Shown in pieces: positions 6,165-50,950 of a stretch of 64,000 bases of DNA. The number at the start of each line of letters is the position of its first letter. Position 1 is the stretch's first letter. The notes beneath the pieces were generated by a model. The model worked only from the letters and a program-made list of their open reading frames with translations. It was not told the origin of the DNA and ran no database searches. The stretch spans positions 54,665-118,664 of the forward strand of contig CAZLQI010000004.1 of assembly GCA_964561765.1 (NCBI GenBank). Reading direction: 5' to 3'. The position numbers and the translations under genes are program-made. The stretch is from an uncultured Chromatiales bacterium (GTDB lineage Bacteria > Pseudomonadota > Gammaproteobacteria > DATFLL01).

Positions 6165-6539
6165 TACTGTTTCACCTCATCGAGTCACAAGAGCGGGGAA
6201 AATGGACCGACCCGATTAGTGAATCAATACCTGTAGCCAACGATTCTGAGGCAATTATAGGCTCAAATACCATCGTTGATGCACATCTCCGAGCCAACTG
6301 TTCTGCAGCCTGACGATGGCATTGCCGGGCCGTATACCGGTATCAAAGGCGGTGCCATGCATCATCTCCCTGCTCGGTACCTCCGCCAGTGCCTGGACCG
6401 ATAGTCGGCAAAGTATCGAACAGGCTGGCGTACAGTGCCATCGCCCTTTCGATGCCTCGAAACCGGGCCAGCGCCCACGGAAATCGCTCTGTGGTGCCTA
6501 GTATAGCAGGAACGTAAATGATGCAGATGGGGATGGATA

Positions 6540-7016
6540 TCAGGTGGGTCGAGGCACGCTATGTCCGCTCGCAGCCCGTCGCAGGATAACGGGTTGATAG
6601 CGTGGGTTCTGGCTGATCTTCATACTGAATCGCCGCACCCAGAGCATGCCCAGAGCCAGTCCTATTCCACCAAAAAAAATACTCGCGAGTTGCGTGGAAT
6701 CAAATTTTAACTGTGCCGCCAGGAACTGGCCCAAGAGGGCGAATAAAAACAGGCACAATAGCGGTAAAATGTAGACGACTATCGATCCCCGCACCAGGGC
6801 GCCTTCATTTAGGCCGACTACGACTTCCTCTCCCGGTTTCGCGTCTATCCGGTTCAGCACGCGCAGGTGCACGGTCTTGCGCCCCAGCACCTTGGACAGC
6901 GCTCCGGTACCACAGTCCTTGCGCGCAGCGCAACTGCCACAGGTGGAACTACGCTGGGTCTCCACCCAGGCCTGCGCACCATTGCACTCTACGACAAGAG
7001 CGGTTTCCTCGATCAT
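6540..7016 (-). CDS. rseC: Sigma-E regulatory protein RseC/MucC
   Basis: 158 aa with an N-terminal Cys cluster and a C-terminal hydrophobic segment. Fourth gene of the rpoE-rseABC operon. Confidence 0.8.
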   Translation of the reverse strand: MIEETALVVECNGAQAWVETQRSSTCGSCAARKDCGTGALSKVLGRKTVHLRVLNRIDAKPGEEVVVGLNEGALVRGSIVVYILPLLCLFLFALLGQFLAAQLKFDSTQLASIFFGGIGLALGMLWVRRFSMKISQNPRYQPVILRRAASGHSVPRPT

Positions 7017-7018
7017 CG

Positions 7019-8029
7019 CTACTCGCCTTTATAAACCAATGAATTACCAATGAGCCGAACCGTGGCTTGTGGCACCTCGCCAACAACAGTCACATAATGT
7101 TCGTCCAAACGACGCCCAAAAGCATTGACTGCACCGATCCATGAGCTACCTACCAGAGGATCGGTGCGTGTTGATAATTTCTCAATAAAGACCGAGGCCA
7201 TGCCATCCGAAAAGACCATGTGCACTACCATAGGTCGTTCGGGAACGGAGTTGTAGCGGTGGTAGGCATCGAGTTTGAATCCTGAAGGTAGATTCGCTAC
7301 CATCCAGCGCCGCGGGGTATTCAATGTCGTATCCATATCAGGTTCTTTCGCCGCATACCAGGAGAACGTCTTCCCTGACATCGTAGGTTCCAGCAGTTTA
7401 TCCGATACCTGTTTCAGGTAGTGAATTTCGGTAAACATGAATTGCTCAATCGGCTTTCCAGAATCTCCCAACAAATCTGTGCGCAATAACAGTTCGGTTT
7501 TTTTATCGACCCACAAATTGTAACCATACCGGTAATGATCACGCGGACGAATGATGATTCTCTGCGTTTCATGGCCTGCCATACGTCCAGTCCCGTCAAG
7601 CGCAAAACTGTAATGGGCGCTCAGGGAATCGGCATTGATAGGAAAATTCGGTGGGAACTGTTTGGATGGATGCACTTTCTCGACAAGCGCGGAACGATTA
7701 TCCGACAGGATGCAGGTCAGGCGGTTGTGATCAAGCACCACTTCGCGTCTAGGTCCGTTGAGTGAAATCAATCGCTCACGTTCACCCGTTGTGCCTGCAC
7801 TGTGGATAATGCGCATGGCATGCAGGTGATTATCAAAACGGTACACGAAGGCGCCGTCATATTTGAGTGTGTGTGCTGCCCGGGCCATTTTGCGCAGCCA
7901 GACCTACACTTTATCGAGCGAACCGGAATCTGTTTTCTGCCTGTTCCGTCCAGCGGCAAAGGCCATCTCACCAGCCAACAGGGTAAACAAAAACAGGATC
8001 AGGAAAAATCTCTTAACGATTCTCATTGA
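7019..8029 (-). pseudogene. rseB: Sigma-E regulatory protein RseB/MucB interrupted by an in-frame amber codon
   Basis: The signal-peptide segment MRIVKRFFLILFLFTLLAGEMAFAAG...SLDKV is followed in the same frame by TAG (complement of 7904-7906). It then continues VWLRKMARAAHTLKYDGAFVY..., which aligns with the MucB mature N-terminus DWLNRLAEADRQNSFQGTFVY. The downstream part is full-length RseB. Confidence 0.6.
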
Positions 8030-8606
8030 CCATACGGCTAGGCAACGGATAACTCACTATACGCATATAGGGCATCATGCCTTGCACCCCCGAGGCCATC
8101 GAATACTCATTGTGGTTGACGAGAAAACGGCTCAGTCTGGTTCGCACATCGCGCGTCTCATTGACCAGCTTCGTCTTGTTAGCCACGCCAGCGGCTACCG
8201 GTCCAATGCTGAGCATCGCTGCCGGCCTGGTAGTCACCACCAGATTTTCATTGACTGAAGTGCTCGGCGAGCTTGCGTGCAGGCTCAGAATTGCAACGGT
8301 CGCGATCGTGGCTGCGACAGCCATACCAATCGCCTGCTTTGCAAGGGGCTGTGTCCGCCAACCCCGACGACGTGGCGCCAATACAACCGGCTCGTGTTCC
8401 AATGCCTGACTGACACGCCCCGCCAGTCCTTGCAGCATCACATTGGGAAGATTGTTACGCAACGCATCGCTGATCAGCTGGTAGCGTTCAAAACGGGTAA
8501 GGATGTCGCCGTCGGCATGCATGCTGCTCAACACGCCCCAATGCTCATCACCGTTTAGCTCGCCGTCCAGGAAGGCGGACAACTTCTCGCTGACTGTATC
8601 GCTCAT
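8013..8606 (-). CDS. rseA: Anti-sigma-E factor RseA/MucA
   Basis: MSDTVSEKLSAFLDGEL N-terminal anti-sigma domain and a central TM segment. Overlaps the rseB start by 17 nt. Confidence 0.8.
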   Translation of the reverse strand: MSDTVSEKLSAFLDGELNGDEHWGVLSSMHADGDILTRFERYQLISDALRNNLPNVMLQGLAGRVSQALEHEPVVLAPRRRGWRTQPLAKQAIGMAVAATIATVAILSLHASSPSTSVNENLVVTTRPAAMLSIGPVAAGVANKTKLVNETRDVRTRLSRFLVNHNEYSMASGVQGMMPYMRIVSYPLPSRMVNENR

Positions 8607-8652: not shown

Positions 8653-9228
8653 TCAACTCAACAAAGGCGCCAGCTTGGCATCAATCGCCTCTCGTGCCCT
8701 GAAAATCCGTGATCGCACGGTTCCAATCGGACAAGACATAGCTTGCGCGATCTCCTCGTAACTCATGCCTTCCAATTCGCGCAGCGTTATCGCCGTTCGC
8801 AGATCTTCGGGTAAATCATCGATCGCCTGGAAAACCACGCGTTCGATCTCGTCTTTGAACAACATGCGCTCCGGCGTAGCATTCTCGCGCAAAGCGCCTG
8901 CGCCCTCATAATACTCGGCGTCCATCACATCAACATCCGAATCCGGCGGGCGACGCCCTTGTGCCACCAGACAATTCTTTGCCGTGTTGATGGCGATGCG
9001 GTACAGCCAGGTGTAAAACGCGCTATCACCGCGAAATGACGGCAACGCCCGGTATGCCTTGATGAAGGTCTCCTGCGCTACATCCTGTGCTTCATACTGA
9101 TCCTGGACATAGCGCGAAATCAGCTTGACGATCTTGTGCTGATACTTGATAACCAGGACATCAAATGCCTTTTTATCACCTCGCTTAACCTTCTCGACTA
9201 ACGCCTGATCAACGTTCTCCTCGGCCAT
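8653..9228 (-). CDS. rpoE: ECF sigma factor sigma-E (RpoE/AlgU)
   Basis: 191 aa with region 2 and region 4 of an ECF sigma factor, highly similar to RpoE. Confidence 0.9.
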   Translation of the reverse strand: MAEENVDQALVEKVKRGDKKAFDVLVIKYQHKIVKLISRYVQDQYEAQDVAQETFIKAYRALPSFRGDSAFYTWLYRIAINTAKNCLVAQGRRPPDSDVDVMDAEYYEGAGALRENATPERMLFKDEIERVVFQAIDDLPEDLRTAITLRELEGMSYEEIAQAMSCPIGTVRSRIFRAREAIDAKLAPLLS

Positions 9229-19099: not shown

Positions 19100-20198
19100 C
19101 TAGAGTCCGCTCTTCAGACTGGCCTGAATAAACGCATCCAGCTCCCCGTCCAACACCGCCTGGGTATTGCCGGTCTCGACCCCCGTGCGCAGATCCTTGA
19201 TACGGGACTGGTCAAGCACATAGGAGCGAATCTGGCTGCCCCAGCCGATATCCGACTTGGCATCTTCCTGCGCCTGTTTCTCTTCGTTGCGCTTTTGCAG
19301 TTCCATTTCGTAGATCTTGGCCTTGAGCTGATTCATGGCATGCGCCTTGTTCTGGTGCTGGGAACGCTCACTCTGGCATTGCGCCACGATACCCGTCGGG
19401 TTATGCGTAATGCGCACTGCCGAATCGGTCCGGTTGACGTGCTGACCACCCGCACCACTGGCACGATAGGTGTCGATACGCAAGTCAACCGGATTAATCT
19501 CGATTTCGATGTCCTCATTCACTTCCGGGTAGATAAACACCGAGGCGAAGGAGGTATGGCGACGATTGCCCGAGTCGAACGGCGATTTGCGCACCAGCCG
19601 ATGCACGCCCGTCTCCGTGCGCAGCCAGCCATAAGCGTAGTCGCCGACAAATCGCACCGTAACACTCTTGAGACCAGCCACCTCTCCCCCCGAGAGTTCG
19701 ATGATCTCCGTGCTAAAACCACTGCGCTCACCCCAGCGCAGGTACATACGCAACAACATATTGGCCCAATCCTGCGCCTCGGTCCCCCCGGAACCGGCCT
19801 GAATATCCAAATAGGCATTCCTGGCATCCATGGCGCCGGAAAACATGCGCCGAAACTCCAAACCGGCCAGTTGCTGGTCGTAGGCCTCAAGCTCGTTGCT
19901 CACGGCATTGAAGGTCTCCGCATCATTCTCCTCTGCGGCCATTTCCAGCAATTCCTCAGTCTCCTGCAAGCCGGTGTCGAGTCTACGCAGGGTCTCGACG
20001 ATCTGTTCCAGACGCGCACGCTCACGGCCCAGTTCCTGGGCGTGTTCTGGGATATTCCAAACGGCGGGATCTTCCAGTTCGCGAATCACCTCTACCAGGC
20101 GTTCCTGCTTGGTATCGTAGTCAAAGATACCCCCTCAGGGCATGTGCGCGCCCTCGCATATCCTTGATACGGGTGCGCACCGCATTGCACTCCAACAT
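19100..20198 (-). CDS. prfB: Peptide chain release factor 2, with programmed +1 ribosomal frameshift
   Basis: A frame-0 leader [25 protein letters not shown] ends at CTT TGA C (complement of 20120-20126), preceded by an internal SD AGGGGG. The +1 frame continues [23 protein letters not shown]... through the GGQ motif (SGAGGQHVN). The shift site is identical to E. coli. Confidence 0.9.
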
Positions 20199-23114: not shown

Positions 23115-24188
23115 TCACGATTTCTCACACACACCAAGTATATCGCGCAGTGGGCGTCGACGGTGCCACCCGTGTCGCCAGGCAGGGCGTTCCAGACACC
23201 ACTGCCTGCCGGTGTCACTGACCAGTGTGAGACGCCCCAATCGACCCCGGCCCAGCGCCTCCAGCAAGGGCGCCAGCCAGCAGGACTGCACCTCGCCCAG
23301 CGCCCCCAGCCAGTTGTCGGCATCCGCGGTCAATACTGCCGCATGCAGACTATCAAGCACTAACAGGGATGTCTCGTGTGCATCACACGCAGCCAGCAAG
23401 GCATCCGCATCATCCGGTAGGGCACGTCCTGGCGTATCGGTATGGCAGGCCAATCCCCGTGCCAGGGGATGATCGGCCATAACCGTGTTGAACCGGGCCG
23501 GGACCGTGGGTGGCAGCGTGCCGCCTCCCCAGAACCAGAGGCTATTGACAGGCAGACGTCCCGCCTCTTCGCGCACCGTATTGAGCGCACAGGCGTGCAG
23601 AATCATCTGCACATCGTTGAGATACCGACGCCAGCAGCGTGCCGCCTTGCCCCGTGGCAAGGCGGTGTGCATGTCCCGGCCCAACACCTCGGTCAATGGG
23701 GTGGTCTGCAGTTGCGGCGGCCCACCCGCGTCGCCACCAAGTCTGAGATACCAGCGATGTGGATGCGCCACCTCCAGATGCCAGCCCTGTTCCGCAAAGC
23801 CCGCAGCGACAGCATCGGCCAACTGCCGGGCCTCCTCCACACACAAGGCCAATGCGTCATGCGCCAGCACAAGGGCACGGTCGCGATCGATCTGCACGTA
23901 GATGGGATCGGCACGCAGCCACCAAGATCCGTCAGGTGTACCCCTATCGTGCAGCCGGGTCAGCGCCGCCACCGGCAAATCTTCCTGGGTCCCGACAGGC
24001 AGGCCAAACAGGGCAAACAGCCCGGCTTCGAGTCCCTGCACACCGGTCGTCTGGCCCCGTGCCCGCGTCAGGGCAATCTCCAGCCCGCGTAGCGCTGGCC
24101 AATCTGACAACGGCCGTTCAGACAGGCCAGACAGTGGACCACACAGTCCCGGCATATAGACGGTGAGATGAGGAGAGAATCGACTCAT
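23115..24188 (-). CDS. Conserved hypothetical protein; possibly RpfE-type / alkaline-phosphatase-superfamily phosphoglycerate-mutase-like
   Basis: 357-aa ORF between hom and recJ. The family is not recognised with certainty from sequence alone. The RpfE-type assignment is a recollection of recJ-adjacent genes in Xanthomonas. Confidence 0.4.
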   Translation of the reverse strand: MSRFSPHLTVYMPGLCGPLSGLSERPLSDWPALRGLEIALTRARGQTTGVQGLEAGLFALFGLPVGTQEDLPVAALTRLHDRGTPDGSWWLRADPIYVQIDRDRALVLAHDALALCVEEARQLADAVAAGFAEQGWHLEVAHPHRWYLRLGGDAGGPPQLQTTPLTEVLGRDMHTALPRGKAARCWRRYLNDVQMILHACALNTVREEAGRLPVNSLWFWGGGTLPPTVPARFNTVMADHPLARGLACHTDTPGRALPDDADALLAACDAHETSLLVLDSLHAAVLTADADNWLGALGEVQSCWLAPLLEALGRGRLGRLTLVSDTGRQWCLERPAWRHGWHRRRPLRDILGVCEKS

Positions 24189-29841: not shown

Positions 29842-30501
29842 CTAGATGGTTCCACCCAACAGGGGGACGAAACTGACTCGGTCCAGAGTGTGGCGCTGGA
29901 AGGCGTCTCCGCTGCGCACAATGACCTCCAGGGCCTGCCCGGATTCCGCACCGACGGGGATCACCAGTCGCCCCCCGTCAGCGAGTTGTGCCATCAGGTC
30001 CGCAGGGATATCCTGCGCCGCCGCGGTGACAATGATACCCTCGTACGGTGCATGTTCTGCCCAGCCCGAACTGCCATCAGTGTGTCTGAGCATGACATTG
30101 TGCAGTTGCAACAGACGCAGATGCTTGCGCGCACAAACCTGCAATGCGCCGATGCGTTCCACACTGTAGACCTGATCGACAAGGTGAGCGAGGATTGCGC
30201 TTTGATAACCGCAACCCGTCCCGATCTCCAGCACATGCGCCGGTCTACCCTGGCCCAGCAACGCCTCGGTCATGCGGGCCACGACATAGGGTTGGGAGAT
30301 GGTCTGGCCGTACCCAATGGGCAGGGCCGTGTCCTCATAGGCACGGCTCGACAGGGCCTCATCGACAAAGATATGCCGCGGCACCCGACGCATGACGTCC
30401 AGGACCTGCAGGTCCTGTATCCCCTCCTCACGCAGGCGCTGCACCAGCCGGTCGCGGGTACGCTGAGAGGTCATTCCGATACCATGCAGATGCCTACTCA
30501 T
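29842..30501 (-). CDS. pcm: Protein-L-isoaspartate O-methyltransferase
   Basis: SAM motif [11 protein letters not shown]. surE-pcm order. Confidence 0.9.
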
Positions 30502-31253
30502 AGTGTACCTGTCTCACTCAGCCAGTCGGCCACCGTCTCTAACGCGGTATAGCGGGTCAGATCGACCTGCAATGGGCTGATCGACACGTGCTGGCGGCGC
30601 ACTGCATGAAAGTCGGTACCAAGACCGGCGTCCTGCTCGCCACCGGGGGGTCCTATCCAGTAGATATCGCGGCCGCGGGGGTCGCGGGCATGGATGACCG
30701 GCTCGGCCTTGTGGCGATGCCCCAGGCGTGTCGCCTCGAAACCCTCCAGCGCCTCCCAGGTACAATCCGGCACGTTGACATTGAGTATGGTGTCCGCTGG
30801 CAACGGGGAGTGGTGCAGGCGCGCGATCAACTGCGCAACGACCCGCGCCGCGGTCTCATAGTGGCGCAACTCAGGGCCGATCAGTGAGACCGCAATCGCC
30901 GGCAATCCGAGAAAACGCCCCTCCATCGCCGCGGCCACGGTGCCGGAGTACAACACATCGTCACCCAGGTTTGCCCCGGCATTGATGCCGGCAATGACCA
31001 TGTCGGGTTCCTCGGTCAGCAAACCGGTAATGGCAAGGTGCACACAGTCGGTCGGTGTCCCGTCGACGGCAATGACATCCGCGGCAATATGGCGAGCCCG
31101 GATAGGATTGTCCAGCGTCAACGAGTTACTAGCGCCGCTGCGATCGCGATCCGGTGCCACCAGCGTGACCTGGGCCAGCTCGCGCAAGACCCCGGCAAGG
31201 CAGACAATGCCCGGGGCCAGATAACCATCATCATTACTCAACAAAATACGCAT
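30498..31253 (-). CDS. surE: 5'/3'-nucleotidase SurE
   Basis: [11 protein letters not shown]-terminus. Full-length SurE. Confidence 0.9.
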
Positions 31254-31524
31254 CTGGGTGCCATCACTCCACATATTTTCATTCCACTCCCCCCCGCCGC
31301 GCGGGCACAGCCTGGTGCAGACCGCTCACCCGCACGACTATACGCGAAAGCCCGATAACGGACACCGTCTGCACACGCCCGAACAAGGTCATCTGGAGGT
31401 AGCACCGCGCCTGCATCTGACCTCGCTGATCTGTCCGCTCCCAGCCGATACAGGTTAATGTCTATTCTTTGCGTTGAGCGTGCTTTTCGGCGATCATAAA
31501 CCCTGAACTTCCGCCCAAAATGCC

Positions 31525-32112
31525 ATGAACGATGATCACGACACGCCGCGCCGCCCCGGCGACACCTCGAAATCGCAGCAACCCGACGCGAGTGAAGACG
31601 ACAATGCCCTGTTCCGTAAGGCCATGGCACAGGTACGCCCATTGCATCACAACAAAGTCAATCTTCTCCTCCCGCCTCCCCCACCCCATACCCGGCAACG
31701 AGAACATGAGCGCTCGGAGGCGGTGTCACTCCTGCTCAGCGATCCACCCGACAATGCGGACATGGAGGCCGGCGAAGAAGTGCTGTTCTCCCGCCCGGGA
31801 TTACAGTACGGCCTGATACGCAAGCTGCGCCGCGGACAACTGAGCATGCATGGCGAACTCGATCTGCACGGAATGAGCGTGCCCGAGGCACGCGAGGCAC
31901 TCACCGGTTTCCTGCACGATGCACTTGCCCGCGGCCTCCGTGGTGTGCGTATCATCCACGGCAAGGGACATGGTTCGCCAAACCGTCGGCCTGTTCTCAA
32001 GACCCACATCAATTACTGGCTGCGCCAACGCGATGAGATCCTCGCCTTCTGCTCGGCCCGTCCCGTCGATGGCGGCACCGGTGCTGTCTACGTCCTGCTC
32101 CGACGCGTCTGA
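31525..32112 (+). CDS. Smr-domain protein (SmrA-like)
   Basis: C-terminal Smr domain LDLHGMSVPEAREAL...IIHGKG. Low-complexity acidic/Pro-rich N-terminus. Confidence 0.7.
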   Translation: MNDDHDTPRRPGDTSKSQQPDASEDDNALFRKAMAQVRPLHHNKVNLLLPPPPPHTRQREHERSEAVSLLLSDPPDNADMEAGEEVLFSRPGLQYGLIRKLRRGQLSMHGELDLHGMSVPEAREALTGFLHDALARGLRGVRIIHGKGHGSPNRRPVLKTHINYWLRQRDEILAFCSARPVDGGTGAVYVLLRRV

Positions 32113-32162
32113 ACCGAATCCCATCACACGACGGCAAGTCGGCTCACGCACAATGGCCCCAT

Positions 32163-32676
32163 TCAGCCCTCGATCTCCACCCGCTTCTCTATCGCGGGAT
32201 TGGCCGGATCATCACCGATCAGCTCACGCACCACGGCGGTGGCATAGCTCCCCGCTGGCAGACTAAAACGCAACGTCAATTCACCGGCAACACCCTGCTC
32301 CCACGCCAGATCCGTCAGCCCGAGTCGCAAGGCACGCCGTTCCTGTCGCAATCCCACACCGGCCAGTGCGAGACACCACTCATCCAGTCCCACCAGCGCC
32401 TCAGCCTCCACGGCGGCGGCCTGGGCGCACACCGGCAAACTGCGCCAGACGCCGGGCCAGCCAGTCAGTGTTCAGGCCACGTTTGCGCAATTGCAACCAG
32501 ACATGTTCACCATCGACCACCGTACCCGCACTGACCTGCAGATCGGGCACCGGGCCGGGCGTATAGCCGAGGATTTCCTCGACGACGAAATCCTCCGGTC
32601 GGGCACGCAGGATGGCGTGTGCAACCGCTGCACCGTGGGCCAGGGCGAGGGGGTGACAAACAGGGTGATCAGACAT
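32163..32676 (-). pseudogene. truD: tRNA pseudouridine(13) synthase TruD remnant with internal deletion and frameshift
   Basis: The ORF 32401-32718 encodes the TruD N-terminus (RARPEDFVVEEILGY...). The ORF 32163-32438 encodes the TruD C-terminus (LTLRFSLPAGSYATAVVRELI). The frames differ, and roughly 180 central codons are missing. Confidence 0.65.
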
Positions 32677-32830
32677 GGGGTAGAGACTGCAAGCGGGGCC
32701 GTGGACAATATCGGCCAATGAATGATTCGATGAGACTGTACACTACGGGGCGGCAATGCCGATATCACGCACTATGCGCAGCCCCGCTGACAGCACGCAA
32801 TCTGCCATCGTCCGGTACGCAGCGGACCAC

Positions 32831-33730
32831 TCACTTGGCCGTGGCCAGAGTCTTGCGCAATCCGGTCACCACACACCGCGCCAGCTCACCGGGAACAAAC
32901 TTGGTGAGAATATCATCAGCACCGCATTGGCGGGCCCTTTCCGAGTTGATGGCGCCATTGAGTGAGGTGTGTAACAACACATACATATGTGAAAAACGTG
33001 GATCCGCCCGCAGGGCCTCGGTCAAGCCGTAACCGTCGATCTCGGGCATCTCAATATCGGAGATCACCATCGCGACCGGGGCTTCGTCATCGCGGCGCTT
33101 ACGCAACGCCTCCAACGCCTCGCGTCCATCGCGTGCCAGGATATAACTCACGCCTATCTCATCCAGCATGCGGGTGGTCTGCGCGCGCGCCATGGCCGAG
33201 TCATCGACGACCAGTATCGGTTGCCTATGCAAGGCAGGGTCATCCAGCCCGCTAATGTCCTCATCCAGTGCCATCGCTGCAGGTTCGACCACCTCGACCA
33301 ACACACGTTCGATATCCAGAATCTGCACCAGAGCGTCATCCACGCGGGTTACACCGGAAATATAGGACCGCGCCCCGGAGCCATGCGGTGGTGGCGTCAC
33401 CTGATTCCAATCGCAAACCACAATCCGTTCAACGCGCTCGACCAGAAAGCCCTGGGTGGCACGGTTGAATTCGGTCACCAGCACAGAGGAACCGTGCGTC
33501 TCGATCGCCGCGCGTCCTATCGCCCGACTCAGATCAATGACCGACAACGCGACACCACGCAAGGTGGCAACACCGCAGACCGTGGCATGCGCATGCGGTA
33601 CGTGGGTCAGCGCTGGACAGGGGATTACTTCCTTGACCTTGAGCACATTGATCCCGAAACGCTGTCGACCGCCCAGGTTGAACAGCAGCAGTTCCAGGCG
33701 ATTATCGTTGCGATGGGTTGGGTCATTCAT
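32831..33730 (-). CDS. cheV: Chemotaxis protein CheV (CheW-like plus receiver domain)
   Basis: An N-terminal CheW-like domain and a C-terminal REC domain (ILVVDDSAMAR...DIEMPEIDG). Confidence 0.8.
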   Translation of the reverse strand: MNDPTHRNDNRLELLLFNLGGRQRFGINVLKVKEVIPCPALTHVPHAHATVCGVATLRGVALSVIDLSRAIGRAAIETHGSSVLVTEFNRATQGFLVERVERIVVCDWNQVTPPPHGSGARSYISGVTRVDDALVQILDIERVLVEVVEPAAMALDEDISGLDDPALHRQPILVVDDSAMARAQTTRMLDEIGVSYILARDGREALEALRKRRDDEAPVAMVISDIEMPEIDGYGLTEALRADPRFSHMYVLLHTSLNGAINSERARQCGADDILTKFVPGELARCVVTGLRKTLATAK

Positions 33731-33850
33731 GCGCGTAGGCGAATCGTAGGTCACGGTGTCTTGGCTATCGGCCGCGCGGACTATTTCTTGAATCTCGGAC
33801 ACGCCCCGCGCAGCCGCGAGGCGCTGGAGGCGCTGGAGGCGCAGCATGCA

Positions 33851-34333
33851 TCAGGACGTCGCCAGGGTGGTGAGCAAGACCACGGCGTGGGTGGCAATCC
33901 CCTCAGACCGTCCGATAAACCCCATGCCCTCAGTGGTCGTGGCCTTGACGTTGATCTGCCCCGGGGCAATACCGAGATCATCGGCAAGCTGCGTGCACAT
34001 GGTGGAAATATGCGGCCCCAGGCGAGGCAACTGGGCCACGACAGTGACATCCGCGTTGCCTACGACATACCCCTGATCAGCGAGCAATAGCACAACACGA
34101 CGCAGCAATATCCGGCTGTCGATATCCTTGAAGGCCGCGCTGGCGTCAGAAAAGTGTCGGCCAATGTCCCCCAGTCCGGCCGCCCCAAGCAGGGCATCAC
34201 ACAGGGCATGAATCACGACATCACCATCGGAGTGTGCCGCCAGACCCTGCTCGTGCGCAATGTGCACGCCACCGAGGATCAGACGACGCCCGTCGGTAAA
34301 GCGGTGGGCATCATAGCCATGACCTATGCGCAT
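33851..34333 (-). CDS. ispF: 2-C-methyl-D-erythritol 2,4-cyclodiphosphate synthase
   Basis: MRIGHGYDAHRF N-terminus. Full-length IspF. Confidence 0.9.
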   Translation of the reverse strand: MRIGHGYDAHRFTDGRRLILGGVHIAHEQGLAAHSDGDVVIHALCDALLGAAGLGDIGRHFSDASAAFKDIDSRILLRRVVLLLADQGYVVGNADVTVVAQLPRLGPHISTMCTQLADDLGIAPGQINVKATTTEGMGFIGRSEGIATHAVVLLTTLATS

Positions 34334-35082
34334 ACCCCCTCCTGCTGTCGGCGCAGATACAACTCGGCCAGCGCGAGGTCCTGCGGGTGGGTGATCTTGA
34401 TGTTGTCCGGGTGTCCGGACACCATTCGTGGATGCAGTCCCTGGGCCTCGATGGCGGCGGCCTCATCGGTGACCACCTCCCCCTGTGCCAGGGCTGCCTC
34501 CAACGCGGCACGCAACACGCCGAGACGAAACATCTGCGGTGTCAGCGCCCGCCACAATCCGTCCCGGCTCACCGTCTCCCGCACGCGACCGGCACGGTCA
34601 CAACGCTTCACTGTATCACTGACTGGCAGACCCAGCAGGCCACCCACCGGATCGCTCGCCAGGGTGGTCAGCAGTATGTCGATATCGGCATGGCGCAAAC
34701 AGGGTCGAGCGGCATCGTGGACCAGCACCCAGTCGTGCTCGTCGGCATGGCCGGCCAGCAGGACTAGAGCATTGAGAACAGAATGGCACCGCTCCTCACC
34801 CCCCGCTGCGGTATACACCGGCACGCTGGTTTCGGGACGGTGCGCAGACCAGTATGGATCATCTGCGGCAACGGCCACCACGATGCCAGCGATGGCCGGG
34901 TGGCCGGCGAGTCGCAACAGGGTATGGGCAATCACGGCACGGCCCGCCAGCGGCAAATACTGCTTGGGCAGAGGTTTACCCATACGCAAACCCACTCCCG
35001 CCGCCGGGACGACCGCCCAGTATCGCGGAGTAGAACAACGCTCGGGAAACGGTGGGGAGATGACAACATCGGTGGGCATGGC
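34324..35082 (-). CDS. ispD: 2-C-methyl-D-erythritol 4-phosphate cytidylyltransferase
   Basis: AVVPAAGVGLRMG motif. Overlaps ispF by 10 nt. Confidence 0.85.
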   Translation of the reverse strand, partial: AMPTDVVISPPFPERCSTPRYWAVVPAAGVGLRMGKPLPKQYLPLAGRAVIAHTLLRLAGHPAIAGIVVAVAADDPYWSAHRPETSVPVYTAAGGEERCHSVLNALVLLAGHADEHDWVLVHDAARPCLRHADIDILLTTLASDPVGGLLGLPVSDTVKRCDRAGRVRETVSRDGLWRALTPQMFRLGVLRAALEAALAQGEVVTDEAAAIEAQGLHPRMVSGHPDNIKITHPQDLALAELYLRRQQEGVCA

Positions 35083-35113
35083 GATGGACCGGATAGCGTG
35101 GAAACGCAATGAT

Positions 35114-35392
35114 TCAGCGTTTTTCTTCAACAATCTGATAGTAAGTCTCGCCCGGTTTGATCATGCCCAGTTCGTTGCGGGCACGCGCCTCGATCGCCGC
35201 CAACCCGTGTTTGAGATCACGGACCTCGGCCAGCAGCGTCTGATTGCGTTCTGCCAAGTGGGTATTTTCTTGCCGCTGGGTCGACAGCGTGTGCTCTAGG
35301 CGCCATACCGGGCGCATGCCGTCGGCACCGATCCAGAGATCGTATTGCAACACAACGAACAGGTACAACAGGATGGCGAAAACAACTTTCAT
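35114..35392 (-). CDS. ftsB: Cell division protein FtsB
   Basis: 92 aa with an N-terminal TM helix and a coiled coil. Upstream of ispD. Confidence 0.8.
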   Translation of the reverse strand: MKVVFAILLYLFVVLQYDLWIGADGMRPVWRLEHTLSTQRQENTHLAERNQTLLAEVRDLKHGLAAIEARARNELGMIKPGETYYQIVEEKR

Positions 35393-35474
35393 GTGCTGGA
35401 CTGGCCCCCCCGGCACGCGCCCTGTCAGCATGATAGCAGATTATCGCGGGCAACCGCATTCGTCTTCTCGGCCC

Positions 35475-35845
35475 TCATCCATCACCAGAGAGGAACTGTC
35501 CCTTCTTGATGTTCACCGGCAGTCCTGGCGTGCCACGTTCTGGATAAAGTTGGTCTGCCGACACAAAAAGGCCGGTGTCTGCAACACATCGACCACTGCC
35601 GCCACCTCATTGATGGGCGTATCTTCATGCACGTCGGTGAGCACCGCCACACCGAGCTGGCGTTTGACCGACTCCAGGATACGCAGACCTTTCTCCAGCC
35701 CTAGTCCGCGGAAACTCCCGCTCGAGGTTCGGTTGGCCTTGTCGAAGGAGGATTTGTAAATGAGCGACATGCCTAGCCGCGCGGTAATGACCTGAATCGC
35801 CTCGGCCGTGTCCAGCGCCAGTTGTCTCGATCACACAGGGCCCGG
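35475..35845 (-). pseudogene. kdsA: 2-dehydro-3-deoxyphosphooctonate aldolase (KdsA) remnant
   Basis: [46 protein letters not shown]...TDVHE...[15 protein letters not shown] aligns with KdsA residues about 30-135. There is an in-frame TGA at 35831-35833 where the conserved Glu of VLESRD sits. A frameshift occurs near 35513 ([13 protein letters not shown] then stop). Both the N-terminal 25 codons and the C-terminal half are absent. Confidence 0.65.
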
Positions 35846-35891
35846 CTATCAGGAACAGGGGCAGCCTTGAAATCGCACAGCGACATCGCGC

Positions 35892-37655
<1,764 letters not shown>

Positions 37656-37712: not shown

Positions 37713-39218
37713 TCATCGATCTGCTGACGGCCCGGGCGGTTCAAAACCGAACACACAGCCCAACTCGTCCGACCTGGCGGCATAAGGCTCACACAGACAA
37801 TACCCTATCACCTGGACCAATTCCCCGTCGACATACACCAGCGGGATCTGTCCGCGCTGCCAGGGCGGCACGCCCCACTCCTGGAAGAGTTTTTTCAGGC
37901 TGTGGCGATGATGACCCCGCCCCTGCGGGCGGCACGCCTCTCCGCCGCGGCGAAAACGCAGCTCGACACGGCGACCCGCCAGTCGTGCCTGGCTCAGCCC
38001 TTGGCCCGCCACACCTCGCACGACCAGCCGTCCTGTTGGCATAACAACGAGCGTTTGCACCCCATTCGAGGGCCACTGCCCACGAACCTCCTTGTCTAGG
38101 TCAATGCGGCCCAACGCGATGGGTGCCAGCGAGGATACCGGGGCAGCCACCGAGCCGGCTCCCAGGTGCGTGTGCGCACCCGGTGCCAAGGCCATTCGCA
38201 GGCCATAAAGGGCATCCCGGTAGCGGCGCACCGCGCCACCCGGCCAAGTGACACAGGGTGCGGCATCGTTGCGCGCGGGCAGTATCTCATGCTGAATGCG
38301 CGAGAGCACTACCGTCGCCGGTATGGGCACTGCGTTGCCACGCAACCAGCAACGCAAGACATTGCGCTGGCGAGCCGGTGTGAGACGCTGCAAGGCGCCG
38401 ATCGACAACGTGCTATTACCACTGCCAGGCACGCCGCGACCGGCCACCTGGGGCGCTGCAGGCCTCACAAGGGTACTGTCGGCCACGGGATCCACCATCG
38501 CCGCCAGATCGGACTCACCCAGCATATCGAGCAGGGCGGCGGCCTCGGCTTGATGCGCAGCGGCGCGCGACAGGGTGCGCGCACAGGCCGGCCAGCGTGC
38601 GCTCAGCCGTGGCATGAGTTGATGGCGTAGATAGTTGCGGTCCAGATTCAGGTCCCGGTTGCTCGGGTCCTCGACCCAGACCAGTCCTTGCACCTCGGCA
38701 TAGTGGCGTAACGCCGCCCGGGACACCGCCAACAGGGGCCGGCCAAGCCAACCCTGTCCCAACAGGGCCTGTCGCGGCATGGCTGCCAGGCCACGCACCC
38801 CAGCGCCACGCAACAGTTGCAACAATAGGGTCTCGGCCTGATCGTCGCGGTGATGGGCCGTCAGCACCGCTTCACCGGTACTGACCACTTTGGCCAAGGC
38901 CGCATAGCGGGCCCGCCGGGCCGCGGCCTCTGGGCTCTCACCCGTGCCAGGGCGGGCCACAACCACGCGCACGACGCAAGGAATCCCCAGCGCATGACAG
39001 GTCGCCACACAGTGTTCGGCCCAGCCATCGGCCTCGGGCTGCAGGCCATGGTGGATATGCACCGCACCCAGTGCGCCACGCGGCCAGTGCGCACGCACAG
39101 CCACCAGGGCATGCAACAAGACATGGGAGTCGACACCACCGCTGTAGGCGACCCAGTAACGCGAAGCACCGGGCAACCCCTGCAGGGTATACAACAGATG
39201 GGTGGGGGAAAAGTCCAT
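37713..39218 (-). CDS. tilS: tRNA(Ile)-lysidine synthetase
   Basis: PP-loop SGGVDSHVLL. accA-tilS-pyrG order. Confidence 0.85.
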   Translation of the reverse strand: MDFSPTHLLYTLQGLPGASRYWVAYSGGVDSHVLLHALVAVRAHWPRGALGAVHIHHGLQPEADGWAEHCVATCHALGIPCVVRVVVARPGTGESPEAAARRARYAALAKVVSTGEAVLTAHHRDDQAETLLLQLLRGAGVRGLAAMPRQALLGQGWLGRPLLAVSRAALRHYAEVQGLVWVEDPSNRDLNLDRNYLRHQLMPRLSARWPACARTLSRAAAHQAEAAALLDMLGESDLAAMVDPVADSTLVRPAAPQVAGRGVPGSGNSTLSIGALQRLTPARQRNVLRCWLRGNAVPIPATVVLSRIQHEILPARNDAAPCVTWPGGAVRRYRDALYGLRMALAPGAHTHLGAGSVAAPVSSLAPIALGRIDLDKEVRGQWPSNGVQTLVVMPTGRLVVRGVAGQGLSQARLAGRRVELRFRRGGEACRPQGRGHHRHSLKKLFQEWGVPPWQRGQIPLVYVDGELVQVIGYCLCEPYAARSDELGCVFGFEPPGPSADR

Positions 39219-39414
39219 AGTGACAATAGTATGTGGGACCTGCTAAGACCGCATTGGCAGCGACTCGACCCTGCGCGACAGGGGTGAGATCACCCGCCCC
39301 CGGTCAGCCACAGCCACACTGGCAGGGCCTCAGTTCCCCCGGCAAGCCCCACACGTCAGGTACGGGAAGTGGACTCTGGCAGCAAACTCGAGGGCTTGGT
39401 CCCACGCCGCCGGG

Positions 39415-40377
39415 TCACTGCTCTTCCTTGAAATGACCCGACTGCATCAGATGCGTATAGCGTTGTTCGAGCAGCATGTCCATAGGGATGGCGTCCAACT
39501 GCGCGAGGGCCGTGTTCAGTCCGGCCTTGAGGCGCTGAGCGGTGACTTCGATGTCACGGTGGGCACCACCGAGCGGTTCCATGATCACCTCATCGATCAG
39601 CTCGAGCTGCTTGAGCCGCCCGGAAGTAATCCCCAGCGCCTCAGCCGCATCCGGTGCCTTCTCCGCGCTCTTCCACAGGATAGAGGCACAACCCTCGGGC
39701 GAGATCACCGAATAGATGCCGTATTCCAACATCATCACCCGGTCGCCGACACCGATCGCCAGCGCACCACCGGAACCGCCTTCGCCGATAACGGTGCAGA
39801 CAATCGGCGTTTTGAGCTGTGACATGATGAACAGGCTACGGGCAATGGCCTCGCTCTGCCCCCGCGCCTCGGCATCCACACCAGGGTAGGCGCCGGGGGT
39901 GTCAATAAAGGTCAGTATCGGCAGGGAAAAGCGCTCTGCTATTGCCATCAGCCGCTGTGCCTTGCGATAGCCCTCGGGGCGAGGCATAGCAAAATTACGG
40001 TAGACCTTTTCCTTGGTATCACGTCCCTTCTGATGACCAATTAACATCACCGGGCGCGCATCGAGTCGCGCCAGGCCACCCACGATCGCCGGATCATCGG
40101 CATAGGCACGATCACCGTGGAGTTCCTGAAAATCCGTGAAGATGTGCTCGACATAGTCCAGCGTGTAGGGACGTTGCGGATGACGGGCCAGTTGGGCGAT
40201 CTGCCAGGCACTGAGGTTGTCAAAGATGGATTCTGTCAGCTCGCGGCTCTTGGCCTGCAGGCGGTCGATCTCCTCACTCAGATTGATCGCCGAGTCGCTG
40301 TCAACATAGCGCAGCTCCTCGATCTTCGCCTCAAGCTCGGCGATAGGTTGTTCAAAATCCAGGAAATTCAGATTCAT
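39415..40377 (-). CDS. accA: Acetyl-CoA carboxylase carboxyltransferase alpha subunit
   Basis: Full-length AccA similarity. Confidence 0.9.
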
Positions 40378-40571
40378 GGCAATAGCGTATTGTTATCTGG
40401 GCAAAGGGATCAAACCGAGAGCAAGTATATAGGAGCACACCCCGCCTGCCTACACTATTGCCTGTGCGACGAGGGCTGTTTCACACCGTCCCGGTCAATC
40501 GAGCACGAACGCACTGGCAGGGGCCAGGGCGGGAACTCGCCCATTCGGTAGGTTCGTGCGCACCTGTAGGC

Positions 40572-44051: not shown

Positions 44052-44119
44052 GCGCAGAACTTAACGCCCGGACCGCGGGCTTTCAAGCATGATTTTTTGC
44101 CTGTGCATCGCGTGTCGCC

Positions 44120-44731
44120 TCAACCCTGTTCCGCCTCCAGCAGGCGCCGGACGGGGGCATAGGAGCGCCGATGTACGGGCGTGACGCCCAGGCTCGCCAG
44201 GGCTTCCAGGTGCTGTTTCGAGGGGTAACCCTTGTGTTTCGCCAGACCGTAACCGGGATACCTGGCATCCAGCTCAACCAGTTCCCGGTCGCGTACTACC
44301 TTGGCCAGGATCGAGGCGGCGCTGATCGAGGCGACCCGTGCATCGCCCTTGATCACCGCCTCGGCCGGGCACGGCAAGCTGGGGCAACGGTTGCCGTCGA
44401 TCAAGGCAAACTGTGGCGCCACCGACAGGGCTGCGATGGCGCGCTGCATGGCCAGCAAGCTCGCCTGCAGGATATTGATGCGGTCGATCTCCTCGACCTC
44501 GGCACGGCCCACGCCCCAGGCCAGCGCCCGCTGGCGGATTTCCTCAGCCAGACACTCGCGTTTCGCCGCGCTCAGGACCTTGGAATCGGCCAACCCCTCG
44601 ATGGGGCGCTCAGGGTCGAGAATCACCGCCGCAGCCACCACCGGCCCGGCCAAGGGGCCCCGCCCTACCTCATCCACACCGGCTACATATCGGTAACCCC
44701 GAGTGAAATCAAACCCGACTTGTGCTGACAC
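44120..44731 (-). CDS. rnhB: Ribonuclease HII
   Basis: [15 protein letters not shown] active-site motif. GTG start with a GAGGA SD. Confidence 0.9.
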
Positions 44732-44982
44732 GGTTATCCTCGCGTGACCTGTACCATGTGGGCGTCAAGCTTACCCGGACATCGGACCGCTGTCATGTCC
44801 CTGAGGACACATCTGCATCACGCATTTCACCCGGCTCGCTCACAAAGTAAAGGAACCCCTGAGTCAAGACAGAAACACGCCGAGTTTAAGCTGTGCATTC
44901 CCCTTCATACGCAGCAGGTCGGCATCGCCCCGGTGGTGGTATAAGTCTCTGATTTTCCATCACTGCCAAATCTGTCCACGAT

Positions 44983-45135
44983 CACCGCCCCGCCACCCTG
45001 GCGGCTCGCATACACCCGATCCGGCTGCCTGCATCAATGTCCACCTCCGGGCCAATCACCGTGAACAGCCCGACAGTCACACCGTCGCCTATCCTGGCAT
45101 CGGGGTCTACAACCGCGCGCGGATCGACACTCATA
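44983..45135 (-). pseudogene. lpxA: UDP-N-acetylglucosamine acyltransferase LpxA N-terminal stub (50 codons)
   Basis: The ATG overlaps the fabZ TGA (ATGA), as canonical. [40 protein letters not shown] aligns with the hexapeptide-repeat start of LpxA, then a stop. There are only about 250 nt before rnhB and no lpxB. Confidence 0.6.
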
Positions 45136-45577: not shown

Positions 45578-45581
45578 GGCG

Positions 45582-46622: not shown

Positions 46623-46648
46623 ACCCTGTTGTTGATCTCTTTCCATCA

Positions 46649-47206: not shown

Positions 47207-47252
47207 AGCTGCCTCCATCGCATCCGGAACAAAGTCCTCACACAGATCATCC

Positions 47253-49529: not shown

Positions 49530-49578
49530 GAAATACCCGCGTCTATCCTGCTTGTCATATTGACGGTTGACCCCGGGT

Positions 49579-50946
49579 CTAACCAAACAACCCGGAAAGA
49601 TCGTTATAAAAAGCCAGGCTCATAAGCATAACCAGGATTACTATACCTACACGTTGCCCCACGGCCTCGGTTTGTTCCGAGACCGGACTACCTTTTACAA
49701 TCTCGATAAAATAGTACAACAGGTGACCACCATCCAGGATGGGGATCGGCAACAGGTTCAGCACGCCCAGGCTGAGGCTGACAATGGCGATAAAATCAAG
49801 ATAATGAGTCGGTCCAGCGCTGGCAGACTCGCCGGCATAACGGGCGATATTGATGGGACCGCTGAGATTCTTCACCGAGGCCTCGCCAATGAGGATTTTG
49901 CCCAACATATTCAACGTCAGTGTCGACATTGTCCAGGTCTTGTGTACTGCCTCGTTGATGGCGCCCAGCACCGGATAACGATAGATCGCCTTCATGCTTT
50001 GCGGCATTGGCGTACGCTGCGCCGGTGTGATGCCTACTTGTGCCACCCGCGCGCCATTTTCCATAACGCGATGCGGTGTTACCGATACCACACGACTGCG
50101 ACCTTCCCGATCGATGCGAAATACTATCGGTTTACCGGTATTTTTCCGTACCACATCGACCAGAGCCTGCCAGTCATCAAGCGCCTTGCCATTGGCAGCA
50201 ACAATGTGATCGCCCGGTTCGAGACCGGCTTGCTGCGCCGCCGAACCGGGCAATATCTTGCCGATGATCGTAGCCACCCGGGGCAACCAGGGCACGATAC
50301 CGAGGTGCTCAAATATCCGCTTGGTGATCTCATGAGCCTTGAGCCTGCGAAAATCGAGTTGCGCGTGCCGCGTATCGCCATTGCGTTCGCGTAGCGTCAA
50401 CGCCACCTCGCTACGGTCGATCATCGCCGGCAACAAGGCCTGCAGGGCGGCATCCCAAATTGGAGTAATCCGACCATTGACCGCCACGATCTCCTCACCC
50501 GCATGCAGACCCGCCACCGCAGCCACCGAGCCGGACCTGACCTCACCAATCACGGGTTTGATGCCGCTCACACCGACGATAAACACCAGCCAGTAGATCA
50601 CGATGGCGAGCAAAAAATTGAACAACGGGCCGGCCAACACGATTGCGAAGCGTTTGTAGACTGGCTGACGATTGAAAGCGCGATGCAGCTCGTGCGCGGC
50701 CACCTCTCCCTCGCGCTCATCAAGCATTTTGACATAGCCACCCACAGGCAAGACGGCAACGACATATTCGGTTTGATCCGCACCGGCCCGGTGACGCCAC
50801 AGCGGGCGTCCGAAACCGATCGAATAGCGCAACACCTTGACACCGAGAGTCTTTGCCACCCAGAAGTGGCCAAACTCATGGACGGCAACCAGCACCGAGA
50901 TGGCGACAATAAAGGCAACAAGGGTAAACAAAACACTGCCGAACAT
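49579..50946 (-). CDS. rseP: Sigma-E protease RseP (S2P zinc metalloprotease)
   Basis: HEFGH zinc motif, PDZ domains and a C-terminal LDG motif. Confidence 0.9.
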
Positions 50947-50950
50947 GACT

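Follow-up and report, generated by a model that had tools for sequence, protein, structure and literature searches.

A premature amber stop separates the signal peptide from the mature domains of rseB in an uncultured gammaproteobacterium

The interrupted rseB gene and its operon

We analysed the sigma-E regulatory genes carried on a 64-kb stretch of DNA (64,000 nucleotides, hereafter the window) from an uncultured gammaproteobacterium. The features of the locus, all on the minus strand, are listed below with the evidence for each.

6165..6539, minus: non-coding gap of 375 bp in place of a degP/mucD-like gene (gene order of relatives)
6540..7016, minus: rseC, intact, beginning 2 nt past the rseB stop (Pfam RseC_MucC, E 6.8e-38)
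7019..7903, minus: remainder of rseB, an open frame with both MucB/RseB domains and no signal peptide (Pfam, PDB)
7886..7888, minus: internal ATG, the conserved Met47 of the WLxKM motif (20-sequence alignment)
7904..7906, minus: premature amber TAG (CTA on the plus strand), ancestrally CAG for Gln (orthologous codons; Logan assemblies)
7907..8026, minus: 5' part of rseB, now a 40-codon ORF with its ATG at 8026-8024 and a Sec-type signal peptide (translation)
8013..8606, minus: rseA, anti-sigma-E factor, apparently intact (Pfam RseA_N, E 1.5e-15)
8653..9228, minus: rpoE, sigma-E, intact (NCBIfam TIGR02939, 325 bits against a cutoff of 236)
49579..50946, minus: rseP, site-2 protease, intact and full length (Pfam Peptidase_M50 and PDZ)

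Translated in a single frame, the minus strand from 8026 to 7019 reads MRIVKRFFLILFLFTLLAGEMAFAAGRNRQKTDSGSLDKV (stop) VWLRK MARAAHTLKYDG...KGE (stop). A 40-codon ORF is thus followed by the TAG, five sense codons and a 289-codon ORF, all in frame, with the ATG at 7888-7886 as the sixth codon past the TAG and the natural stop of the gene at 7021-7019. The 5' ORF holds a signal peptide of about 24 codons and about 16 codons of the mature protein; by eye, its N-terminus shows the basic residues R2/K5/R6, the hydrophobic core FFLILFLFTLLAG and an A-F-A cleavage motif. Using Pfam, we found MucB_RseB (PF03888) at residues 41-216, covering profile positions 3-178 of 178 (E 1.1e-56), and MucB_RseB_C (PF17188) at residues 238-330 (E 1.6e-19). 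Since the first of these matches begins at residue 41, the start of the domain coincides exactly with the stop. The product also matches the solved structures of MucB (6in8, E 2.8e-26) and RseB (2p4b/3m4w, E 5e-15), and it scores 119 bits against the NCBIfam equivalog, which has a cutoff of 368. Translation, Pfam and homology together confirm the in-frame amber codon that the initial annotation had placed between the signal peptide and the mature part of rseB.

The short 5' ORF belongs to the same gene. Counted on the alignment, it shares 26 of 40 residues with the N-terminal end of P0002, the closest orthologue, to which the whole protein is 71.6% identical; the two parts are about equally similar to it, indicating that the 40-codon part is homologous and not a chance open frame. 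The gene has both domains of the RseB/MucB family, homology to its solved structures and a place in an rpoE-rseA-rseB-rseC operon, whereas the signal peptide, contiguous with the mature domains in the family, is here split from them by the TAG at 7906-7904. On this sequence evidence the locus is rseB by descent but is predicted to encode no functional member of the RseB/MucB family.

The order rpoE-rseA-rseB-rseC is shared with relatives (L014-L017). The end of rseA overlaps the start of rseB by 14 nt, as it does in L014; the RseA protein has 197 residues (199 in L014), and its C-terminal motif LVNHNEYS.ASG.QGMMPYMRIVSY is conserved. RseP has a dN/dS of 0.09 against a 93%-identical relative (L020). 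Directly after rseC, the contigs of L014, L015, L016 and P0003 carry a degP/mucD-like gene for a Trypsin-PDZ protease of about 490 residues, at the place of the 375-bp gap. No degP/mucD-like copy was found by tblastn anywhere in the 64-kb window, and no remnant of one was detected in the gap by Pfam on three frames or by blastn against L014 and L015. The best tblastn match in the gap, 56 residues at 29% identity and colinear with PDZ2, had an E-value of 0.03 in a 411-nt database, and we found it unconvincing.

Origin and reality of the stop

We compared the codon at the TAG site with its counterparts in relatives. It is CAG in all five readable orthologous loci (L014, L015, L016, L017 and L002), indicating that the rseB stop is a single derived C>T nonsense transition. 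At the protein level, 19 orthologues have Q (12), E (5), R (1) or G (1) at this position, and the eight closest all have Gln, in line with the D/E or Q that the initial annotation expected there.

Three runs assembled independently of one another (SRR6439361, SRR6439356 and SRR6439355; Logan assemblies L001, L018 and L019) all show the identical TAG, and their assemblies are 100% identical across the site, over 6.3-10.3 kb. All six public contigs that bear the RpoE or RseC of this operon encode the truncated 289-aa RseB. In a collection of about 15 billion proteins there was no intact rseB allele above 72% identity, and among GTDB species-representative genomes the best match reached only 48%, with no close intact allele. 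JGI metagenomes gave no exact match to the TAG/NAG context. An exact look-up of the window's RpoE, aimed at the rse genes of the relative with 93% identity (SRR25425416), returned only the known six contigs. The samples differ elsewhere: SRR6439355 carries seven SNPs in 12.4 kb, and a strain in SRR14803402 shows 99.6% identity over other parts of the window, so neither a single clone nor one copied sequence accounts for these records. A sequencing or assembly error, in which the true codon would be CAG and RseB intact, had been offered in the initial annotation as the alternative to gene loss, and the one-base difference from the orthologous CAG and the fully open downstream ORF would suit it. 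The same TAG in three per-run assemblies and six contigs, the lack of an intact version in the protein collection and the SNPs elsewhere lead us to reject it, and we regard such an error as extremely improbable. The TAG is a genuine stop; it falls at codon 41, some 17 residues past the start of the mature protein. A sharp compositional boundary at the TAG, as might mark a recombination breakpoint, was also considered and set aside; over 1-10 kb there is a gradual rise in GC, with values of about 47% at one end and about 59% at the other.

We then asked how the part downstream of the stop has evolved. At columns with 90% or higher conservation, RseB has eight changes specific to its lineage, compared with 0-2 in relatives; one of them is a 2-aa deletion in the DGMA(SV)SVFIE strand of MucB_RseB_C, where MucB has residues. 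Leave-one-out HMM scoring gives it 437 bits and the six nearest relatives 487-502. Because protein identities of 60-72% would saturate dS, comparisons of the window with L014-L017 used amino-acid relative-rate counts instead of dN/dS. With L015 as outgroup the counts are 45:10 for RseB, an excess over the 54:29 of its pooled neighbours (p = 0.035) that loses significance with a second outgroup (p = 0.23). The lineage is faster than L014 in all five operon genes compared, even rpoE (9:1), and GC3 lies below that of the orthologues in the eight genes compared in the rse-lep region. From these sequence comparisons, the acceleration of RseB appears only marginal, in a lineage that is fast as a whole. 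Its disabling lesion arose after the split from orthologues that are intact and is reproduced in independent data, and rseB is best read as a recent null allele or unitary pseudogene; the 289 codons still open and the conserved C-terminal motif of RseA indicate that the lesion is young, and some residual function may persist.

Could the stop be bypassed? Were it leaky or suppressed, by read-through or by an amber suppressor tRNA, some full-length RseB would still be exported and the allele would be a hypomorph. The 289 downstream codons with no further stop or frameshift fit this, as does the conservation of RseA's presumed RseB-binding tail. The 64-kb window has no tRNA genes, and a suppressor, if present, would be encoded elsewhere in the genome. 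However, the stop is found in none of the 19 orthologues, and it is thus not a programmed recoding site; the mature part has accumulated the eight changes at conserved positions, the deletion included, and the genome carries several other unambiguous pseudogenes. An efficient suppressor would also be costly, since housekeeping genes in the window ordinarily end in TAG. We consider a leaky or suppressed stop unlikely. That TAG might be a sense codon, through a reassigned code or pyrrolysine, has nothing in its favour beyond the in-frame TAG itself. TAG ends 15 of the 62 long ORFs in the window, including rseB, and the genes with full-length Pfam matches that it terminates are lysS, rseP, uppS, frr and an rpoS-like gene; orthologues, moreover, carry Gln/Glu at the site. 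Its use as an ordinary terminator leads us to reject code reassignment, to which we attach almost no credence.

Re-initiation at Met47 could instead yield a cytoplasmic RseB fragment whose acquired or kept function would explain the open ORF. The ATG lies just 18 nt past the stop, a distance compatible with termination-reinitiation, and the ORF continues unbroken to its usual stop, 2 nt ahead of rseC. Against this, the Met is a conserved internal residue, nearly invariant across the 20-sequence RseB alignment, and no Shine-Dalgarno sequence occurs at a useful spacing, the sole AGG upstream of the ATG at 7888-7886 sitting about 14 nt away. The RseA tail and LPS, with which RseB is known to interact, lie in the periplasm, and in so young a lesion an open frame is expected anyway. 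A functional fragment of this kind is very unlikely. The initial annotation had pointed to the same ATG and to a cytoplasmic product; any product re-initiated there would have no signal peptide, and the ATG itself is an internal codon of the ancestral gene with no usable Shine-Dalgarno sequence.

Other lesions in the window

We surveyed nearly all long ORFs in the window with Pfam and NCBIfam scans. These replaced a crude codon-score scan for ORF pairs split by a single stop, which returned, besides rseB, antisense shadows and adjacent genes and was unable to separate real genes from antisense shadow ORFs. Two candidate split genes, the pairs pcm/DedA-like and ispF/CheW-REC, turned out on testing to belong to different families. 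Two genes of LPS synthesis are reduced to remnants at their canonical loci.

35525..35830, minus: kdsA remnant, residues ~25-126 of ~276 (NCBIfam NF003543, profile 50-131 of 273, E 3e-38)
45015..45134, minus: lpxA stub, LpxA residues 1-40 only (NCBIfam NF003657, profile 5-43 of 264, E 5.7e-9)

Alignment with L020 and L021, by tblastn and at the DNA level, places the end of lpxA homology to its relatives at 45016; the stub is followed by 284 bp of unrelated sequence and then by rnhB, and the junction is reproduced in the Logan contig L022. The 5' part of kdsA holds in-frame stops on translation, and its 3' part and the entire eno gene are missing in tblastn searches with KdsA and enolase of L027. 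The distance from pyrG to ftsB is 461 bp, compared with about 1.4-3.2 kb in 44 related loci, and strain L025 likewise has a called kdsA fragment of 85 aa. An internal deletion affects truD. The canonical start codon of lpxD is lost (ATG>ATA); the gene is otherwise full length, with a dN/dS of 0.13 against the 93%-identical relative, and any loss of LPS would thus be recent. We found no repeats within the window of the sequences at the lpxA junction, the truD junction or the gap after rseC, and a repeat-mediated origin of these three has no supporting repeats there.

In all, the window has at least five lesions among its about 58 genes, those of truD and eno being unrelated to the envelope. The genes rpoE, rseA, rseC, rseP, bamA and skp are kept; dN/dS is 0.07-0.15 where measured, indicating purifying selection.

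Consequences for sigma-E signalling and comparison with known systems

We conclude that rseB is very probably a genuine, population-wide null in which the brake on sigma-E activation has been lost, one of several envelope-clustered inactivations in an eroding genome. Ribosomes would terminate after a 40-residue pre-peptide, and any product re-initiated at Met47, 18 nt downstream of the stop, would be expected to stay in the cytoplasm, unable to bind RseA's periplasmic tail. The reading favoured by the sequence is that periplasmic RseB is gone, in agreement with the loss of RseB function proposed in the initial annotation. RseB/MucB blocks site-1 cleavage of RseA/MucA, and LPS or lipid A releases it (PMC6358824, citing Lima et al. 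2013 (PMC3928677); PMC8545111). With this brake absent, cleavage of RseA by a DegS-type site-1 protease and then by RseP would need no LPS-derived signal, and sigma-E activation would become a response to the OMP signal only, one that is easier to trigger. By analogy with work in E. coli and Pseudomonas, a more easily induced sigma-E response is plausible.

Why the brake was lost is a separate matter. The rseB lesion appears as one of several recent inactivations in an eroding gammaproteobacterial genome, probably host- or consortium-restricted, in which the operon has lost its degP/mucD-like gene, lpxA and kdsA are dead at their canonical loci and LPS synthesis seemingly is being abandoned. 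As to lifestyle, the one hint is a record that is contig number 119,093 of a very large assembly (GCA_006240935.1). If LPS has been abandoned, RseB would lose its releasing ligand and become useless or harmful, so that its loss would be tolerated or favoured. This link, if it holds, rests on two genes read as dead at their canonical loci within the window. In its stronger form, suggested by the dead lpxA and kdsA and the lost lpxD start, the lineage would recently have given up lipid A/Kdo synthesis but kept an outer membrane with BamA/Skp and the sigma-E core, and the rseB stop and the loss of the mucD/degP-like gene would be a matching rewiring to an OMP-only sensor; here, RseB without LPS would never be displaced from RseA and the brake would have had to be lost. 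We put this forward tentatively, as possible but doubtful. The review that describes the LPS-release model of sigma-E activation also describes it as needing further study (PMC6358824).

The nonsense mutation may be real and yet a neutral by-product of general erosion, with no connection to LPS loss and no selective benefit. The tally of lesions, reaching beyond the envelope to truD and eno, fits such erosion, and the lowered GC3 in eight genes and the faster evolution of five operon genes are a signature of weak selection. On the other hand, four lesions (rseB, the degP/mucD-like gene, lpxA and kdsA) and the lpxD start change concern the envelope, rpoE, rseA, rseC, rseP, bamA and skp have been retained under purifying selection, and the established LPS-release mechanism predicts an RseB brake that could not be released without LPS. 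Neutral erosion is a serious contender, if somewhat short of an even chance; it differs from the population-wide null set out above in cause only, not in the nature of the lesion.

Since the TAG is verified in several samples, annotation should mark rseB as a pseudogene, and it would be a mistake to call a 289-aa "RseB" that starts at the internal Met. The lesion also flags a genome in active decay, with lesions concentrated in LPS synthesis and envelope quality control. If loss of LPS were confirmed genome-wide, the co-loss of RseB would give comparative, in-nature support to the LPS-release model; were that reading true, nature would have performed in this lineage the experiment that confirms LPS sensing as the purpose of RseB.

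Inactivation of rseB is a known kind of event, and rseB/mucB null alleles and their general effect are textbook material. In P. aeruginosa, loss alleles of mucB (algN), in the operon algU-mucA-mucB-mucC-mucD, give mucoid conversion. The protein is of the same family (6in8, E 2.8e-26), and the operon shares the ancestral architecture, relatives of the lineage having a mucD-like Trypsin-PDZ gene after rseC/mucC. The expected consequence is shared as well: when mucB is lost, the anti-sigma factor has no periplasmic protector and AlgU/sigma-E is de-repressed (PMC8545111). The present allele differs in that it seems fixed in an uncultured lineage instead of arising in clinical isolates, and in that mucD is missing too and LPS-synthesis genes are dead. 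The same rpoE-rseA-rseB-rseC operon, with rseP also in the window, underlies the E. coli rseB deletion and its dual-signal (OMP and LPS) model, in which RseB binds the periplasmic domain of RseA and blocks DegS cleavage until LPS displaces it (PMC6358824). Between the window sequence and E. coli RseB the relationship is only distant, and the loss here occurred in nature, alongside broken lpxA and kdsA.

Some Gram-negatives live without lipid A, including lpxA/lpxC/lpxD mutants of Neisseria meningitidis, Moraxella and Acinetobacter baumannii and several insect endosymbionts. As in these, lpxA is disrupted here, a Kdo gene is dead and the BamA/Skp/sigma-E core is retained, whereas in the present lineage a loss of LPS is suggested by the two loci inspected. 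We are aware of no description that connects LPS loss in nature with the loss of RseB/MucB. Multiple nonsense and deletion lesions in a short stretch, together with lowered GC3, faster substitution in the five operon genes and near-clonal populations across samples, recall the pseudogene accumulation of recently host-restricted or otherwise small-population bacteria.

The amber stop between the signal peptide and the domains of RseB

We examined rseB within its operon, which has the gene order expected for the family:

adjoining the operon, divergently transcribed: nadB
9228-8653, minus strand: rpoE
8606-8013, minus strand: rseA, whose 3' end shares 14 nt with the start of rseB
ATG 8026 to stop 7021-7019, minus strand: rseB, between rseA and rseC
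7016-6540, minus strand: rseC

From its ATG, the rseB frame reads MRIVKRFFLILFLFTLLAGEMAFAAGRNRQKTDSGSLDKV up to a premature TAG (7906-7904, minus strand), and past it the same frame continues as VWLRK-MARAAHTLKYDGAFVYRF... to the terminal stop. Read from the sequence, the N-terminus is tripartite like a Sec signal peptide, with basic residues, a hydrophobic core and A-F-A as its cleavage motif. The MucB/RseB N-terminal domain (Pfam) spans residues 41-216 (profile 3-178 of 178, E 1.1e-56), so its start coincides with the stop, and the C-terminal domain spans residues 238-330 (E 1.6e-19). With the stop between them, the export signal is no longer joined to either domain. Translation, Pfam matches and operon context show that the initial annotation, which had reported an in-frame amber stop after the signal peptide, was right to the base. 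Among solved structures, the protein matches MucB of P. aeruginosa (6in8, E 2.8e-26) and RseB of E. coli (2p4b, E 5e-15). By its domains, its structural homology and its place in the operon, the gene is rseB/mucB by descent. Unlike a functional member, it does not encode signal peptide and mature protein as one unbroken precursor.

Of the 40 residues before the stop, 26 match those at the N-terminus of the closest orthologue, and these 40 codons are therefore rseB's own 5' end. ATG 7888, the start that ORF finders use, corresponds to the near-invariant internal Met of WLxKM in a 20-sequence alignment, and inspection of the sequence upstream of it revealed no Shine-Dalgarno at a useful spacing.

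When about 15 billion proteins were searched for RseB orthologues, the closest relatives showed identities of 71%, 68% and about 60%, and all were full length (328-340 aa). At the column of the stop, the 20-sequence alignment has Q in 12 orthologues, E in 5, R in 1 and G in 1, in agreement with the D/E or Q anticipated by the initial annotation. The residue is Q in all eight closest orthologues, inside the motif V-Q-x-W-L-x-K-M, and its codon is CAG in 5/5 orthologous loci (L014, L015, L016, L017 and L002) vs TAG in the window. The difference is a single C>T transition.

Sequencing error, which had been offered as the alternative to loss of RseB, does not account for the public record. The TAG is present in three per-run assemblies (SRR6439361, SRR6439356 and SRR6439355), which match the window at 100% identity over 6.3, 10.35 and 10.26 kb of the rse locus. 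The 289-aa truncated product is recorded from six contigs and is found on every contig bearing this operon's RpoE or RseC, and the collection of about 15 billion proteins holds no intact allele above 72% identity. The samples are not one copied sequence, as they differ at strain level: 7 SNPs separate the SRR6439355 assembly from the window within 12.4 kb (window 39131-51577), and a strain from another project (SRR14803402) has 15 mismatches and 2 indels in 7.5 kb (window 29842-37410), at 99.6% identity. A variant genetic code in which TAG is a sense codon is ruled out, since TAG terminates 15 of the 62 long ORFs in the window, rseB itself among them. It is an ordinary terminator here; lysS, rseP, uppS and frr end in TAG with full-length Pfam matches. 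The stop is lacking in all orthologues, which rules out a conserved programmed read-through site. By these comparisons, the stop is not a site of recoding, and it does not reflect a variant code. The 64-kb window contains no tRNA genes, so a suppressor tRNA could lie elsewhere in the genome. The nonsense mutation in rseB is real, derived and common to every sampled instance.

Constraint on the rseB frame

All 289 codons beyond the stop are still open, and the C-terminal motif of RseA is conserved. At columns of mature RseB that are at least 90% conserved, the window has 8 lineage-specific changes (R98L, V103L, V113A, R119H, G178E, P208S, T222S and a 2-aa deletion in DGMA(SV)SVFIE, where MucB has two residues) vs 0-2 in each of the seven closest relatives. 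Its leave-one-out profile score is 437 bits vs 487-502 for the six nearest relatives. In a relative-rate count of the window against L014, a relative with an orthologous operon, RseB has 45 window-specific and 10 L014-specific changes (outgroup L015). The window lineage is also faster in every other gene (window:L014 rpoE 9:1, rseA 17:11, rseC 12:7, nadB 16:10), and the excess in RseB over these genes pooled is marginal (p = 0.035 with outgroup L015, p = 0.23 when repeated with L017). We read rseB as a young null allele, with weak evidence of relaxed constraint.

Lesions elsewhere in the window

A scan covering nearly all long ORFs shows that the window otherwise contains mostly intact housekeeping genes. 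The other genes of the RseB pathway (rpoE, rseA, rseC and rseP, the last at 49579-50946) are among them, as are bamA and skp, which serve in outer-membrane assembly. Further loci are damaged or missing, among them:

44732-45134, minus strand: lpxA stub region, between fabZ and rnhB
35432-35891, minus strand: remnant of kdsA (Kdo-8-P synthase gene), between pyrG and ftsB
32163-32718, minus strand: truD, which has lost about 200 internal residues and changes frame
6165-6539, minus strand: 375-bp gap where a degP/mucD-like gene is missing, between rseC and a glutaredoxin-like gene

The lpxA stub (45134-45015, minus strand, 3' of lpxD-fabZ) encodes LpxA residues 1-40 only (NCBIfam NF003657, profile 5-43 of 264, E 5.7e-9). 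In alignments with a 93%-identical relative (L020) and with a relative at 76% (L021), homology breaks off at exactly 45016, while lpxA runs on in both; beyond the breakpoint, 284 bp of unrelated sequence precede rnhB-dnaE. The junction recurs in an independent assembly (Logan contig L022), which extends through rnhB-dnaE, and the SRR6439361 contig stops 23 nt beyond the breakpoint. Another relative has fabZ-lpxA followed by lpxB, which is absent from the 64-kb window. The canonical start of lpxD (46611-46652 region, minus strand) is ATG in L020, GTG in L021 and ATA in the window. A 1-nt insertion upstream puts ATG 46649/46646 in frame, and translation may be rescued with an N-terminal extension of 12-13 residues. 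Apart from its start, lpxD is full length, and its dN/dS vs L020 is 0.13, similar to tsf and skp and slightly above bamA (0.07) and rseP (0.09).

The pyrG-ftsB spacing is 461 bp in the window. Among 44 related loci it is about 2.2-3.2 kb in 40, which carry kdsA and eno, and about 1.4 kb in the 4 without kdsA there. The kdsA remnant comprises residues about 25-126 (NF003543, profile 50-131 of 273, E 3e-38); its 5' part is interrupted by in-frame stops and its 3' part is deleted, and the same 85-aa fragment is called in the 99.6% strain from SRR14803402. Enolase, whose gene follows kdsA in nearly all related loci, has no match within the window. TruD is split into two small ORFs (profile 7-70 and 269-340 of 353), both also called in that strain and in an NCBI record (GCA_006240935.1, contig VAOZ01119093.1). 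This record is 100% identical to window 29851-35825; its assembly has more than 119,000 contigs, which suggests that the organism was sequenced within a host genome or a large metagenome.

Directly 3' of rseC, a gene for a Trypsin-PDZ protease of about 490 aa is present in L014, L015 and L016 and on the contigs of P0003, an RseB orthologue. It was identified by the sequence of its product in L014, and for the P0003 contigs, with no Pfam match or DNA on record, it is inferred from gene position and length. The arrangement is that of algU-mucABCD, with a protease gene after mucC, and the window lacks this gene. We found no copy by tblastn in the 64-kb window and no recognisable remnant in the 375-bp gap.

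A 357-aa ORF adjoining hom (23115-24188, minus strand) matches the apgM/'proposed homoserine kinase' family only in part, from about 97 to 256 of about 400 profile positions, at 44-50 bits vs family cutoffs of 320-446, and may be another degraded gene. prfB (19100-20170, minus strand, upstream of lysS) is not a pseudogene, as its interruption is the expected programmed +1 frameshift, at a normal CTTTGAC site (20126). The sole Rfam family above threshold in the window is the t44 RNA, an rpsB leader element (57176-57304, minus strand, 68 bits).

Possible loss of LPS synthesis and genome erosion

As described in PMC6358824 (citing Lima et al. 2013) and PMC8545111, RseB/MucB binds the periplasmic tail of RseA/MucA and blocks the site-1 protease, and LPS or lipid A releases it. 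Without exported RseB, the OMP signal alone should suffice for sigma-E activation, which would be triggered more easily. Because two independent genes of the lipid A/Kdo pathway, lpxA and kdsA, are dead in one window, our results suggest, with moderate confidence, that the lineage is abandoning LPS. Without LPS as the ligand that releases it, RseB would be a brake that stays on permanently, and its loss would hence be tolerated or favoured. The loss of the degP/mucD-like gene points the same way. Alternatively, the rseB lesion might reflect plain drift in an eroding genome, a reading that only the whole genome would separate from the link to LPS. Drift would fit the truD and eno lesions, the generally fast rates of the window lineage and its low GC3, which is below that of orthologues in 8/8 rse-lep region genes compared (lepA, 0.51 vs 0.85 in L015). 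GC is 47-52% in the first 8 kb (recO, era, rnc, lepB, lepA, glrx, rseC, rseB) vs about 59% elsewhere, with a gradual change, and together with the low GC3 this is consistent with AT-biased drift.

That the joint loss of LPS synthesis and its sensor holds genome-wide is a tentative idea, which we consider rather doubtful; if confirmed, it would have significance beyond the stop itself. The nonsense inactivation of rseB is a new instance of a type of event already known, and the window allele would be expected to work like the known mucB/rseB null alleles.
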